DNA of 64,000 nt, taken from the NCBI GenBank assembly GCA_963734535.1, contig CAVTHS010000014.1:32001-96000 (forward strand). Reading direction: 5' to 3'. This DNA comes from an uncultured Chloroflexia bacterium. GTDB lineage: Bacteria > Chloroflexota > Limnocylindria > Limnocylindrales > CSP1-4. Position numbers and translations under genes: made by a program. Shown piece after piece: positions 37,744-40,404 of this stretch (the stretch's first letter is position 1; the number at the start of each line of letters is the position of its first letter). The notes beneath the pieces were generated by a model, which searched no databases, was not told where the DNA came from, and saw only the letters and a list, made by a program, of their open reading frames with translations.

Positions 37744-40404
37744 ATGGCCGACCTCATCTCCCGCCCAGCCGACCGCATCCCCGGCCCAGCGGACCTCGTC
37801 TCGACGACCCGACCCGAGCCGGTGGTCGACTCGCTGGCGGAGCGGCTCTTCCGCACGCAGTCGCCGCAGCGCCCGCAGTCCACGCCGGTCATCCGGCTCG
37901 AGGTCGACGGGCGCGCCGTCGAGGGCCGCGAGGGCCAGACGATCCTCGAGGTCTGCCGCGACAACGGGATCGAGGTCCCCACCCTGTGCTACGAGCCAAA
38001 GCTGCCGGGCTTCGGCGCCTGCCGCATGTGCGTGGTGGAGGTGGCGGGCGAGGAGCACCCGCCGATCTCGTGCTCGCGCCTGGCCGAGGCCGGGATGGTG
38101 GTCCAGACCCAGACAGAGGAGGTTCGCCGCCTGCGCCGGACCAACCTGGAGCTGATCTTCTCCGACCACAACGCGTACTGCCTGCCGCCCTGCCAGAACA
38201 AGTGCCCGAGCCACATCGACATCCCGGGGTTCCTCAAGGCGAACGCGGAGGGCGAGTTCCGCGAGTCGGCCCGGATCTTCAAGCGCACGATCCCGTTCCC
38301 CTCGATCCTGGGCCGGGTCTGCCCGGCGCCGTGCGAGGAGCACTGCCGGCGCGACGAGGTCGACGAGGCGATCGCGATCCGCGACAGCCACCGCTACGCG
38401 GGCGACCAGGTGATCCGCGCGATGCGCGAGCAGGACGTGGATCCGCCGCTCCCCTTCGAGCTGCAGCCGAAGTCCGGCAAGCGGGTGGCGGTGATCGGGT
38501 CCGGCCCGGCCGGCGCGTCCGCGGCCTACTACCTGCTGATCGCGGGCCACGACGTGACGATCTACGAGCGGGACGAGGCGCCCGGCGGCATGCTCCGTTA
38601 CGGCATCCCGGAGTACCGGCTCCCGAAGGAGAAGGTCCTCGATCCCGAGTACGAGAGCATCACGCGACTCGGCGGGCGCTTCGTCTGCAACCAGGCCCTT
38701 GGCCGCGACTTCAGCCTGGACGACCTCCAGAACCAGGGCTACGACGCCGTCATGGTGGCGATCGGCTGCTACGACACGAACAAGCTGGGGATCCCCGGCG
38801 AGGACGCCGACGGTGTCATCGACGGCCTGGAGTACCTCAAGATCGCCACGCTCGGCCTGACCTACCCGGGCCACGCCGGCACGCGGGTCGTGGTCATCGG
38901 CGGCGGCTTCACCTCGATGGACTGCTCGCGAACCTCGGTACGCCAGGGGGCGTCGGAGGTGACGCTCGTCTACCGCCGCGACATGAAGGACATGCCCGCC
39001 TCCGGCGAGGTCCACGAGGCCATCGAGGAAGGCGTCACGACGATCTTCCAGGCCGGCCCGACCCGCGTCATCGCGAACGAGGCGGGCAAGGTCACCGGTG
39101 TGGAGTTCATCCGGATGCAGCTGGGCGCCGCGGACGCCTCGGGCCGTCGTCGACCCGAGCCGGCCCCTGGCACCGAGTTCACGATCGAGTGCGACCGCGT
39201 CCTGCTCGCGATCGGGCAGGGCCCGGACCTGACCTGGATGGGTGGTGGCTCGGACGGCGTCGAGGCCACGAAGTACAAGCGCCTGCGGGCCGACGCGGTC
39301 ACCTTCCTGACCCCGCGGCCGGGCGTCTTCGGGACCGGCGACGTCCGCATGGGCGCCCAGACCGTCGTCCAGGCGATCGCCGACGGGCGCCGGGCCTCCT
39401 ACGCGGTGGACGCCTACCTGAAGGGAATGGACCTCGGCGAGATCCGGACCCGCCAGACGCTGGCGGAGCCACAGCCGGAGTTCCTTAGCATCGTCCCGTT
39501 CACGTCCGAGGTGAAAGCACCCCGCAACCGGCTGCGGACCATGCCTGCCGAGGAACGGCGCTCGAGCTACGTCGAGTACGAGATCCCGTACTCGCAGAGC
39601 GAGGCGGTGGCGGAGTCCACGCGCTGCCTGCAGTGCACCTGCGAGGCGATCGGCTTCTGCGACCTGCGCCGCCTGGGCATCGAGTACGGGACCACCCTCA
39701 AGACGCTGGAGCCGCAGAACAACGGCGGGGCCGGCTTCCGGAGCGTGACCGAGAACCGCTTCACCGGCTCCAACCACGACTACATCCGCGACGACAGCCA
39801 CGCCTTCATCCTCCGCGAGCCGTCGCGCTGCATCGACTGCGGCCGCTGCGCCAACGTCTGCGCCGAGGTCGTCGGGGCGGCCTGCTACGACTTCATGCGG
39901 ATCGGCTTCGACACCCTGGTGACCACGCCGCTCGACATGAGCCTCAACGACACGCCGTGCGTGTCGTGCGGGCGTTGCGCGGAGACGTGCCCCACCGGCG
40001 CGCTCATGCCGAAGCCGCGGATCCTCGAGAAGTACGACGTGGACGAGAGTCGCTGCATCCTGTGCGGCATCTGCGTCGACGCCTGCCCGTACGACGCGCT
40101 CCGCTGCGGCCCCGACTTCGAGCTGGCGCACGTGAGCCGCGAGGAGCCGATGATCGACCTCATCGCGATCGCGGCGGTCGATCGCGAGACGGAGATGACC
40201 TACGTTCGCCGCGAGCGCGACTGGCTGGAGCGGGCAGTCGCATCCGGCCGGGATGTCGGCGCCCGCCAGCTCCCGGTGCTCCCGGCCTCGCTCGCGGGCG
40301 GCGCGAACGGCAACGGCAGCGGTCGCGCGAGCGTCCCCGGCAACGGCCACAATGGGCACGGCCCGGCCGGCGGCGGCACCGCCGGGCACGCGCACAACCG
40401 GTAG
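37744..40404 (+). CDS. NuoG-N / GltD(NfnB)-like FAD-NAD(P)H oxidoreductase / 2x[4Fe-4S] / NuoI C-terminal half fusion
   Basis: [2Fe-2S] [124 protein letters not shown]. Own ATG at 37744. Confidence 0.88.

Follow-up and report, generated by a model that had tools for sequence, protein, structure and literature searches.

A split NuoI and an StnC/NfnA-type flavoprotein at the NuoG position suggest an NADPH-fed complex I in Limnocylindrales

Introduction

Which electron donor feeds the respiratory complex I of an uncultured bacterium whose nuo operon lacks an ordinary nuoG? The question is raised by a 64,000-nucleotide stretch of DNA (hereafter the window; GenBank assembly GCA_963734535.1, contig CAVTHS010000014.1, positions 32,001 to 96,000 of the forward strand) from an uncultured Chloroflexia bacterium (Chloroflexota; Limnocylindria; Limnocylindrales; CSP1-4 in GTDB), in which the place of nuoG is taken by a gene for an iron-sulfur (Fe-S) flavoprotein, here called G' (37744-40404, + strand). 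Complex I is held to be a dehydrogenase of reduced nicotinamide adenine dinucleotide (NADH), or of ferredoxin or F420H2 in cyanobacteria and some archaea. An initial annotation of the window had read G' as an StnC-like substitute for NuoG and as a candidate quinone oxidoreductase of the phosphorylated cofactor NADPH, and had considered reverse electron flow, transhydrogenation, and bifurcation as further roles. The analysis reported here suggests that the complex I encoded in the window is a proton-pumping NADPH:menaquinone oxidoreductase whose head is a cut-down Nfn-Bfu/StnABC-type cassette lodged inside a split nuoI, a reading to which we assign a probability of roughly 0.55. More broadly, the gene content suggests that the proton pump probably uses NADPH instead of, or besides, NADH. 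PMC papers are cited here from excerpts of their text, with the exception of PMC12361115, which is cited from its main text.

Results

Sequence comparisons place G' with StnC and NfnA

The G' gene begins with an ATG at 37744 and ends with a stop codon at 40404, giving a product of 886 amino acids (aa). In a phmmer search of Protein Data Bank (PDB) sequences, residues 49-781 of G' aligned to residues 3-699 of the 1178-residue chain 9bov_A, the NfnA subunit of Caldicellulosiruptor NfnABC (E 1.4e-162), followed by NfnA of Thermococcus sibiricus (9n5u_A, E 2.7e-141) and StnC of Sporomusa ovata (8oh5_C, E 2e-140); the next matches were NfnB, GltD, and dihydropyrimidine dehydrogenase (DPD), with E values from 1e-80 to 1e-39. 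Respiratory NuoG chains matched G' only in its first ~100 residues or in residues 629-806, and the PDB alignments stop at about residue 700 of NfnA/StnC chains that are 1172-1178 residues long. An AlphaFold2 (AF2) model, built on a 61-row alignment of G' relatives that includes 28 StnC-like proteins of at least 1000 aa, had a mean predicted local distance difference test (pLDDT) score of 75.9 and rose above 90 through most of the flavoprotein unit. A Foldseek search with this model returned the same three chains on top (9bov_A, E 1.2e-69 and 39% identity, then 8oh5_C and 9n5u_A) and target-normalized template modeling scores of 0.80-0.81 against NfnB and GltD. These searches bear out the StnC kinship proposed in the initial annotation, and the homology confirms G' as an Fe-S flavoprotein of the StnC/NfnA type at the NuoG position. 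The complex I context proposed there also holds, as G' is set within a complete nuo operon.

The domain make-up of G' follows the same pattern. A HydA/NuoG-type [2Fe-2S] domain (residues 49-124; 37888..38115, + strand; Fer2_4, E 2.8e-20) carries the ligands C82, C93, C96, and C110, which are invariant across the 61-row alignment. It is followed by H142-x3-C146 and the GltD-type cysteine motifs C150/C154 and C193/C197/C201 (residues 142-224; 38167..38415), likewise invariant in that alignment and covered from residue 146 to 224 by Fer4_20 (DPD domain II, E 2.8e-17); of the Pfam family NADH-G_4Fe-4S_3, only positions 1-17 of 40 match, at residues 131-147, which is the start of the HxxxC motif (HNAYC in the translation). 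Residues 247-548 (38482..39387; Pyr_redox_2, E 4.9e-30) form the fold for flavin adenine dinucleotide (FAD), with GSGPAG, and the NADPH fold, with GGGFTSMD and YRR at 410-412. The motif C-x2-C-x-C-x5-C at residues 628-639 (39625..39660) is the remainder of a His-ligated NuoG N5-type cluster motif that is interrupted by the GltD unit; its cysteines C628, C631, C633, and C639 are invariant in the 61 rows and have the same layout in the 9bov_A alignment. A ferredoxin-like domain with two complete 4Fe-4S motifs (residues 689-754; 39808..40005; Fer4_7 and a weak, sub-threshold Fer4_Nqo3 match) has invariant cysteines and aligns with 9bov_A up to chain residue ~699; a 4Fe-4S dicluster match covers residues 739-787.

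All the parts that the initial annotation had described (NuoG-type [2Fe-2S] domain, HxxxC, GltD/NfnB/DPD-like unit, and further Fe-S motifs) were recovered by translation and Pfam, and neither a molybdopterin nor an H-cluster family appeared among the 25 listed of 29 Pfam families that match G', in agreement with its statement that both are missing. Its end point, 40030, did not hold: G' runs on for ~100 residues past the ferredoxin-like domain, and the 125 residues that were cut off hold a third ferredoxin motif, which belongs to the back half of NuoI (residues ~757-830; 40012..40233). The extreme C-terminus (40264-40404, residues ~841-886) is a Gly/His/Asn-rich, low-complexity tail with pLDDT <35, and it is not conserved, because the alignments of f2-family orthologues stop at residue ~850. 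An open reading frame (ORF) of 1345 aa at 36367-40404 would suggest an F-G fusion; this was dismissed, since its first 300 residues are NuoF, the frame is then the wrong one, and G' begins at 37744. The ORF is an artefact of an open GC-rich frame in a window of ~70% G+C, where long spurious ORFs abound.

The NADPH/FAD unit is highly conserved. Column counts here and below refer to 86 Limnocylindrales-type loci (window included) and 76 Thermoleophilia loci, with only those loci counted that have an aligned residue. GGGFTSMD, each of Y, R, and R at 410-412, and the equivalent of StnC R239 (R292 in G', numbered via the 9bov_A alignment) occur in 84/84 Limnocylindrales loci; Y410, R411, and R412 are at least 90% conserved in the 61-row alignment, and YRR is common to G' and the NfnA chain 9bov_A. 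NfnB/GltD-type enzymes that have been tested prefer NADPH at least 10-fold (PMC12221290). At the position of StnC K170, the lysine that ligates the FAD-proximal cluster (PMC10482914), G' has His216, and a histidine stands there in all 84 Limnocylindrales and all 66 Thermoleophilia loci.

The initial annotation had called for a phylogeny. In a quick maximum-likelihood tree with StnC-like proteins as the comparison set, a branch with a Shimodaira-Hasegawa-like approximate likelihood ratio (SH-aLRT) support of 100 separates the 33 complex-I-linked G' sequences, without exception, from the 28 StnC-like proteins; the three subclades of complex-I-linked G' are unresolved in it. Six StnC-like representatives (P0012, P0032, P0036, P0040, P0073, and P0087; 812-853 aa) all end in "...NN(I/V)DHCARL", which we take to be the selenocysteine position of formate-dehydrogenase-type proteins. 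Their gene calls may have stopped at a TGA codon, in which case they would be NADPH-linked, selenoprotein formate dehydrogenase-like enzymes.

NuoI is divided between two cassette proteins

Mapping of E. coli proteins and of those of L016, an intact close relative used as the tblastn query set for the window, gave the operon order nuoA-B-C-D-H-[I-front::E]-F-[G'::I-back]-J-K-L-M-N. The gene after nuoH (35528..36362, + strand; L016 has the intact orthologue) encodes a fusion of the NuoI front half with a NuoE/StnA-like domain of thioredoxin-like type. Residues ~1-85 of the fusion protein are NuoI front half, with NuoI motif 1 (CETCFQCAQACP) and without a second ferredoxin motif: residues 9-83 of the L016 orthologue match 8e9g_I 7-83 (M. 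smegmatis) and 2fug_9 7-70, and E. coli NuoI 25-87 aligns to residues 21-82 of the fusion (E 4e-12). Residues 117-262 of the orthologue match NuoE-type proteins, best of all StnA/NfnC (9bov_C, E 2.2e-14; 8oh5_A, E 3.6e-13). The other half of NuoI sits on G', whose last ~130 residues match 8qby_I 93-143 (E 1.1e-13), TYKY 152-198, and 8e9g_I 84-128, with 8qby_I and 8e9g_I the best single-stretch matches in a PDB search of the tail. Motif 2 and the PDFE of E. coli NuoI align to this tail as well (E 4e-14), and G' has GPDFELA after its third ferredoxin motif. The front and back matches imply a break in the loop between the two cluster motifs, so that the E-F-G' cassette lies inside nuoI with an in-frame fusion at each end. 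By sequence, then, nuoI is split, its front half joined to NuoE and its back half to the C-terminus of G'.

Both halves are maintained. The four cysteines and the proline of the front motif are invariant in 24/24 aligned sequences from three clades, and the motif cysteines of front and back are invariant in 77/77 and 84/84 Limnocylindrales and in 54/54 and 70/70 Thermoleophilia loci. When each carrier was folded alone, its NuoI half stayed below a pLDDT of 50 (G' 760-824; E protein 23-114). Two other readings of the G' tail were dropped. HMMER had placed its CILCGIC on the first Cys of the FdhF-like domain of 9bov_A, as in an N7/molybdopterin-type cluster; the motif is CxxCxxCxxxCP followed by PDFE. 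The tail is not a whole NuoI either, because the motif that BLAST had paired with E. coli motif 1 belongs to the BfuA ferredoxin-like domain, which StnC has too, and because the NuoI front half, with invariant motif 1, sits on the E protein. In five Limnocylindrales loci (L085, L089, L051, L033, and L040) the fusion protein has only 221-234 aa, versus 273-282 aa elsewhere, by either shortening of the E domain or assembly indels.

The split also bears on whether E, F, and G' are merely a soluble Stn-like enzyme encoded inside the operon, with complex I working without them. Their nearest solved relatives are indeed soluble; against this, both NuoI halves are in frame with cassette proteins in three clades, the C-terminal FdhF-like domain of the soluble type is absent, and no intact nuoI was found in the genome, where E. 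coli NuoI matches only the G' tail at E <=1e-8 (tblastn). We regard a free-standing soluble enzyme as highly improbable.

The NuoE- and NuoF-like proteins are of Stn type and have lost cofactor-site residues

The next gene (36367..37732, + strand) encodes a NuoF/StnB-like flavoprotein with a core of ~445-455 aa (Pfam Complex1_51K, SLBB, and NADH_4Fe-4S). Its best PDB matches are StnB (8oh5_B, E 4.2e-100) and 9bov_B (E 1.9e-99), HydB also ranks ahead of respiratory NuoF, and the respiratory chains are weaker (8e9g_F, E 6.3e-82; 2fug_1, E 2e-70). The protein spans only residues 114-526 of the 584 in StnB and is therefore without the extra N- and C-terminal cluster domains; Pfam found neither Fer4 nor N-terminal 2Fe-2S domains in the window and L016 proteins. 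Thus the statement of the initial annotation that NuoG is replaced was right about the position of G' and too narrow, as the Stn/Nfn-like character extends to the entire E-F-G module, around which NuoI is split.

Sites around the expected flavin mononucleotide (FMN) and its clusters differ sharply between clades. The second Cys of cluster N3 (B1 in StnB) is kept in 0/81 Limnocylindrales loci (T 62, S 17, A 2) versus 64/64 Thermoleophilia loci, while the other three N3 cysteines are kept in Limnocylindrales (81/81, 81/81, and 82/82) and in Thermoleophilia alike. The FMN-side Asp, D195 in T. sibiricus NfnB (PMC12018979), is Tyr in 78/78 Limnocylindrales and Asp in 56/59 Thermoleophilia loci, and the Glu that follows it is Gly in 53, Glu in 23, and Ala in 2 of the 78 (Glu in 55/59 Thermoleophilia). 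The Glu of NVET occurs in 0/80 versus 58/59 loci, and Cys 3 and Cys 4 of the NuoE cluster in 0/18 versus 54/54, the former figure being a subset, as only 18-20 Limnocylindrales E domains aligned well enough. The AFM signature is also replaced in the Limnocylindrales NuoF-like protein.

Evolutionary rates are consistent with this decay. NuoF is among the best conserved subunits in ordinary complex I. Between the genus of the window and a second family of the order, identity is 80% for the GltD unit, 83-84% for the Fe-S region of G', 85% for NuoB, and 73-74% for NuoD, but only 55-58% for NuoF and 50-51% for the NuoE domain, the lowest of all subunits. In four pairwise comparisons within the order, the ratio of nonsynonymous to synonymous substitution rates (dN/dS) was 0.30-0.44 for F and 0.30-0.48 for E, versus 0.09-0.25 for the G' domains, 0.08-0.17 for NuoB, and 0.14-0.32 for NuoD; because this G+C content probably saturates or biases dS, we rely on the ranking alone. 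Both E and F thus remain under constraint, though far less than the NADPH/FAD unit. From these sequence patterns, NuoE and NuoF of Limnocylindrales look to be kept mainly as a scaffold, and the NADH/FMN route looks weakened or lost. Given the decayed F and E sites, NADPH would likely be the main donor in Limnocylindrales, and with NADPH/FAD motifs that are invariant the proposal of an NADPH:quinone oxidoreductase stands as the best reading, although the activity itself is one that we infer.

A predicted route from NADPH to menaquinone

By homology to StnC/NfnA, NADPH would pass a hydride to the FAD of G', from which single electrons would travel first through the two [4Fe-4S] clusters of GltD type, next to the N5-type cluster with its His ligand, and then to the two clusters of the ferredoxin-like domain. 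From there they would enter the two NuoI clusters, built jointly by the front half on the E protein and the back half on G', and reach N2 in NuoB and then menaquinone, with NuoH and NuoJ-N pumping protons. Electrons in StnABC follow the path FAD-C7-C6-C5-C4-C3-B1-FMN, and the branch past the ferredoxin-like domain has been described as a non-functional, dead-end remnant (PMC10482914). In G', NuoI motif 2 starts 14 residues past that branch, which makes a connection from FAD to quinone via the split NuoI the simplest wiring; the branch would here be the productive exit to quinone. The potentials of the two cofactors in the cell, -370 mV for NADPH and -280 mV for NADH (PMC10482914), suggest a benefit: NADPH would add ~90 mV where menaquinone leaves little driving force for the pumping of four protons from NADH, a rationale that parallels the driving-force argument made for Nuo-Bfu (PMC9304861).

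Several points weigh against this reading. NuoF keeps the glycine-rich loop GRGGAGFP, GGPSGG, and three of the four N3 cysteines, is under purifying selection (dN/dS <0.45), and may still hold FMN and a cluster and oxidize NADH. A tblastn search (1e-5) of the 90%-complete genome with E. coli Ndh gave no match to a type II NADH dehydrogenase (NDH-2), and with a dead NuoF, NADH could enter the chain only via PntAB (homologues at G000:C11:85451-88355 in the genome of the window, G000, 42-45% identical to those of E. coli) or another enzyme. That YRR binds the 2'-phosphate of NADPH is our assumption, as is menaquinone, which we take to be the quinone of these phyla, as the acceptor, and the AF2 model of G' contains no cofactors. 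A co-fold of the two NuoI halves with four 4Fe-4S clusters scored 0.36 versus 0.00 for the best control (contact agreement between runs at least 71%, partner pLDDT at least 58), which is weak support: the same mark was reached by 58/80 solved complexes and 2/110 mismatched pairs, yet at <=0.60 by only 7/80 and both mismatches, and because NuoI is a solved fold the pass may be recall.

The retained NuoF motifs, with three strictly conserved N3 cysteines, the purifying selection on NuoF, and the missing NDH-2 match also speak for a dual-fuel complex I, in which the NuoF-like FMN would oxidize NADH and the G' FAD would oxidize NADPH, each feeding a common Fe-S chain to quinone with some NADPH-to-NAD+ transhydrogenation. 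The N3 CxxCxxC is intact in the Thermoleophilia and Ktedonobacteria relatives, and one chain connects both flavins in StnABC (PMC10482914). In Limnocylindrales, however, the FMN-side Asp, the NVET Glu, and the second N3 Cys are gone from every locus counted and the Glu next to the Asp from 55/78, F and E are the fastest-evolving soluble subunits, and an unregulated link between the two pools would waste the NADPH/NADH disequilibrium. We consider two donors possible but, on balance, unlikely.

The same structure could also run mainly in reverse, with proton-motive force driving quinol electrons to the G' FAD so as to supply biosynthesis with NADPH, for instance in cells that grow or persist on H2, CO, or succinate. 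Complex I is reversible, and the genome also encodes a soluble NiFe hydrogenase with a candidate HoxF::GltD fusion. This is, however, the sole complex I of a heterotroph-like genome in which PntAB is already there for NADPH supply, and the sequence carries no direction signal; the proposal differs from forward NADPH oxidation in direction only, and all structural inferences are common to both. A mainly reverse role seems improbable to us, and the forward reaction, from NADPH to menaquinone, remains our preferred reading.

Distribution of G' and the Thermoleophilia and Ktedonobacteria forms

Of 41 related genomes, 39 have an orthologue of G' with at least 73% identity; the completeness of the other two is 75% and 67%. 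Among public GTDB species genomes, 540/595 pattern-matched stretches encode a G' relative, of which 80 were kept, all from metagenome-assembled genomes (MAGs) of Chloroflexota or Ca. Limnocylindrales. An even sample of 401 Chloroflexota genomes gave 85 with a G'-type match at E <=1e-180. By family, these fall in the class of the window (f1 23/23, f2 4/4, f3 15/16, f4 2/2) and in f9 (5/5), f24 (24/28), f28 (9/11), and f19 (1/2), with 1/130 in other families. Family f24 is Ktedonobacteria and includes the isolates Thermogemmatispora carboxidivorans PM5, T. tikiterensis T81, T. aurantia, Dictyobacter spp., Ktedonobacter robiniae, Thermosporothrix hazakensis, and Tengunoibacter. Taken together, these counts show that the G' feature is real, conserved, and widespread.

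In Ktedonobacteria, nuoB-[I-front::X]-F-G' stands apart from the other nuo genes; F keeps its N3 motif, and the E domain is no longer recognized by Pfam. Strain PM5 also has a canonical NuoF beside NuoH, plus another NuoH elsewhere, and its nuoB-[I-front::X]-F-G' set (L177 4427-11178) lies back to back with an isocitrate/isopropylmalate dehydrogenase gene. All Chloroflexota forms examined are without AFM and have Tyr at the D195 position.

A relative 44% identical to G' (P0016) led to Thermoleophilia MAGs, where 177/227 pattern matches encode a relative and the order A-B-C-D-H-[I::E]-F-G'-J-N was found in 6/6 loci examined. Of 201 Thermoleophilia genomes sampled, 48 have a match at <=1e-200, some of them soluble paralogues without the tail. 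Thermoleophilia NuoF (orthologue L125 included) is 641 aa long and consists of a thioredoxin-like N-terminal 2Fe-2S domain, Complex1_51K, NADH_4Fe-4S, and a C-terminal Fer4 dicluster; it carries AFM and GAFVCGEE, both listed as signatures of bifurcating BfuB (PMC12018979). Judged by its sequence, the Thermoleophilia form keeps the full bifurcation-type BfuBC core. A small subclade (L100, L101, L102, and P0016) has lost the NADPH motifs, with GDGFAA.EA in place of GGGFTAMD and no YRR; over all Thermoleophilia G', GDG occurs in 7/68 and YRR is absent in 6-7/67. These four keep the full BfuB-type NuoF, a mirror image of the decay in Limnocylindrales.

The Thermoleophilia form bears on whether the complex I of the window could itself bifurcate or confurcate, coupling NADPH, NAD(H), and ferredoxin to quinone reduction in analogy to the predicted Nuo-Bfu. 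The cassette descends from Nfn-Bfu/Stn enzymes, and the Thermoleophilia relatives keep both extra cluster domains of NuoF, AFM, and the C1 cysteines. In Limnocylindrales, the truncated NuoF-like protein has neither the N-terminal 2Fe-2S domain of StnB nor its C-terminal, ferredoxin-binding 2x[4Fe-4S] domain, C1 is short of two cysteines and B1 of one, and AFM is gone; non-bifurcating homologues are without B2-B5 (PMC9304861), and B1-FMN-C1 is the bifurcation site (PMC12018979). In this lineage the earlier suggestions of bifurcation and of ferredoxin-coupled transhydrogenation are thus not supported, and we hold either to be very unlikely, in favour of NADPH-driven quinone reduction.

The remaining nuo genes, assembly errors, and genome context

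The one operon encodes, on the + strand, every subunit of the Q-module and the membrane part (NuoA, B, C, D, H, J, K, L, M, and N), with identities to L016 as follows. Upstream of the cassette lie nuoA (31306..31662; 94%, 118/118 residues), nuoB (31653..32384; 96%; E. coli NuoB 36-181 at 50%), whose start is uncertain and which has an Ala/Pro-rich N-terminal extension, nuoC (32388..32940; residues 17-176 95% identical), nuoD (32955..34169; 96%, 404/404 residues), and nuoH (34180..35517; 89%; PF00146 match at G000:C14:66357-67487). Downstream follow nuoJ (40431..40964; 86%), nuoK (40967..41272; 94%, start approximate), nuoL (41295..43298; 90%; E. coli NuoL 40% over 1-612), nuoM (43305..44855; 93%; E. 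coli NuoM 41%), and nuoN (44873..46348; 91%; E. coli NuoN 35%). E. coli NuoJ and NuoK as tblastn queries gave no match at 1e-8, whereas those of L016 do match. Homologues of NuoA, H, M, and N are confined to contig C14, no second nuo operon was found in the 90%-complete MAG, and the operon in the window is, as far as this MAG shows, the only membrane nuo operon of the organism. A separate cluster of NuoB/NuoD/NuoH/NuoL-like genes (L262; G000:C2:~246000-250600) is probably a group-4 hydrogenase or an Mrp-type complex.

In the window, nuoE and nuoF each shift frame once, at a single extra base (36159-36162 and 37272-37276). They are not pseudogenes: the genes are in single frames in 5/6 relatives, and the base is absent at both sites in the contigs of 3/3 DNA runs, one of them 99% alike to the window. 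The two frameshifts are assembly errors. An apparent single-base insertion near 32433 likewise shifts the frame of nuoC after residue 16 relative to L016, giving three frame-breaking insertions within 5 kb. As two of them are contradicted by short-read contigs of three runs, long-read indel errors are probably present elsewhere in the assembly; candidate examples are the ClpB ORF (21458-24931), which continues into a NUDIX domain, and a PurH-like ORF (26458-29226) of 922 aa, of which only the first ~375 match. RNA evidence was set aside: short contigs of a soil metatranscriptome (X16) are 88-99% alike over parts, and they come from relatives, with DNA carry-over possible.

Elsewhere in the genome, a soluble Hox-type [NiFe] hydrogenase cluster (L261; G000:C6:258057-264802) encodes HoxE-like and HoxU-like proteins and the small and large subunits. 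It includes a 1134-aa ORF that joins NuoF-like and GltD-like domains, a candidate fusion for which assembly indels are possible. Besides the complex I of the window, it would be another enzyme of this genome in which an FMN/NADH module and a GltD-type FAD/NADPH module go together.

Discussion

How does this enzyme compare with known systems? The window shares with StnABC/NfnABC of Sporomusa ovata (8oh5), Caldicellulosiruptor saccharolyticus (9bov), and Thermococcus sibiricus (9n5u) the same three-protein set: StnA and StnB are the best matches of E and F, and the alignment of G' with StnC/NfnA takes in the 2Fe-2S domain, the GltD/NfnL insertion, and everything up to the ferredoxin-like domain, with all cluster Cys/His motifs, the R239 equivalent, and YRR in common. 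It differs in that G' has the NuoI back half where StnC has an FdhF/molybdopterin-like C-domain, E carries the NuoI front half, F lacks the extra cluster domains of StnB (its residues 1-113 and 527-584), one ligand of B1 and the cluster site C1 have disappeared, and His replaces StnC K170. StnABC is soluble, whereas these genes lie in a membrane nuo operon; the available text of the Stn/Nfn structure papers mentions no membrane-bound form (PMC10482914, PMC12018979).

Compared with canonical complex I (E. coli, T. thermophilus Nqo1-15, and M. smegmatis 8e9g), the operon has NuoA, B, C, D, H, and J-N homologues in the usual order, both NuoI cluster motifs, and the NuoG-type 2Fe-2S, N5-type, and N4-type motifs. 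It departs from the canonical enzyme in that the protein at the NuoG position has no molybdopterin-like domain, its N5 motif is interrupted by a flavin/NADPH unit, its ferredoxin-like domain keeps the second cluster, NuoI consists of two halves on two other proteins, and E-F-G stand between H and J rather than after D.

Among published ideas, Nuo-Bfu, a prediction by Schut et al. (2022; PMC9304861), comes closest: it likewise has a Bfu-family module in place of NuoEFG in a nuo cluster, with menaquinone as the proposed acceptor. With its 14 subunits (A-N), Nuo-Bfu is assigned to Deferribacteres, Proteobacteria, Planctomycetes, and Nitrospirae and is proposed to confurcate NADH and ferredoxin, and the excerpted text mentions no NfnL/GltD NADPH domain, split NuoI, Chloroflexota, or Actinomycetota; its core also differs in having clusters B2-B5, which F of the window lacks and the Thermoleophilia relatives keep. 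Mbx-like operons (Degli Esposti, 2015; PMC4758237), compared here by description only, encode a membrane enzyme related to complex I in which a GltD-type NAD(P)H flavoprotein stands in for NuoI. They are of Mrp/Mbx type, hydrogenase-derived, and proposed to pass electrons from ferredoxin to NAD(P)+, and the excerpt mentions no NuoE/F partners, split NuoI, or NuoG-type domain.

A search of the full-text literature (subscription journals and supplementary tables not covered) found no published description of this enzyme. The enzyme of Thermomicrobium appears in Islam et al. (2019) as "nuoA-E,H-N" and that of Thermogemmatispora as "nuo", and the main text of a genome-mining paper (PMC12361115) mentions neither Chloroflexi nor NADPH nor NuoI. 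The G' operon may explain why pipelines call complex I "incomplete" (nuoF, nuoG, or nuoI missing) in these groups. Alternative input modules and Nfn-Bfu modules are known; new here are the split NuoI that carries a three-gene cassette and, as proposed, an NADPH/FAD entry on complex I that this split core subunit would link covalently to the pump.

As a more speculative extension, which we put forward tentatively and rate as possible rather than probable, Limnocylindria, a class abundant in soil and fresh water, would respire NADPH, not NADH, via their only complex I, with PntAB passing NADH electrons to NADPH; the Thermoleophilia form, with its intact BfuBC core, would be a genuine flavin-based confurcating complex I in which NADH, ferredoxin, and NADPH together supply quinone reduction; and the split NuoI would mark a second, independent acquisition of an input module.

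The family offers a natural experiment on the grafting of input modules onto an ancestral membrane complex, and the form in Thermoleophilia is relevant to the question of whether a proton pump that reduces quinone can be driven by flavin-based bifurcation modules. Because G' occurs in Ktedonobacteria that are in culture (Thermogemmatispora, Dictyobacter, Ktedonobacter, and Thermosporothrix), NADPH-driven pumping is directly testable. If the proposal is true, the lower in-vivo potential of NADPH would provide the driving force for the full proton stoichiometry of a menaquinone-linked pump, and models of respiration and redox balance would change for three groups that are common in soils, fresh water, and sediments: Limnocylindria, Ktedonobacteria, and Thermoleophilia.

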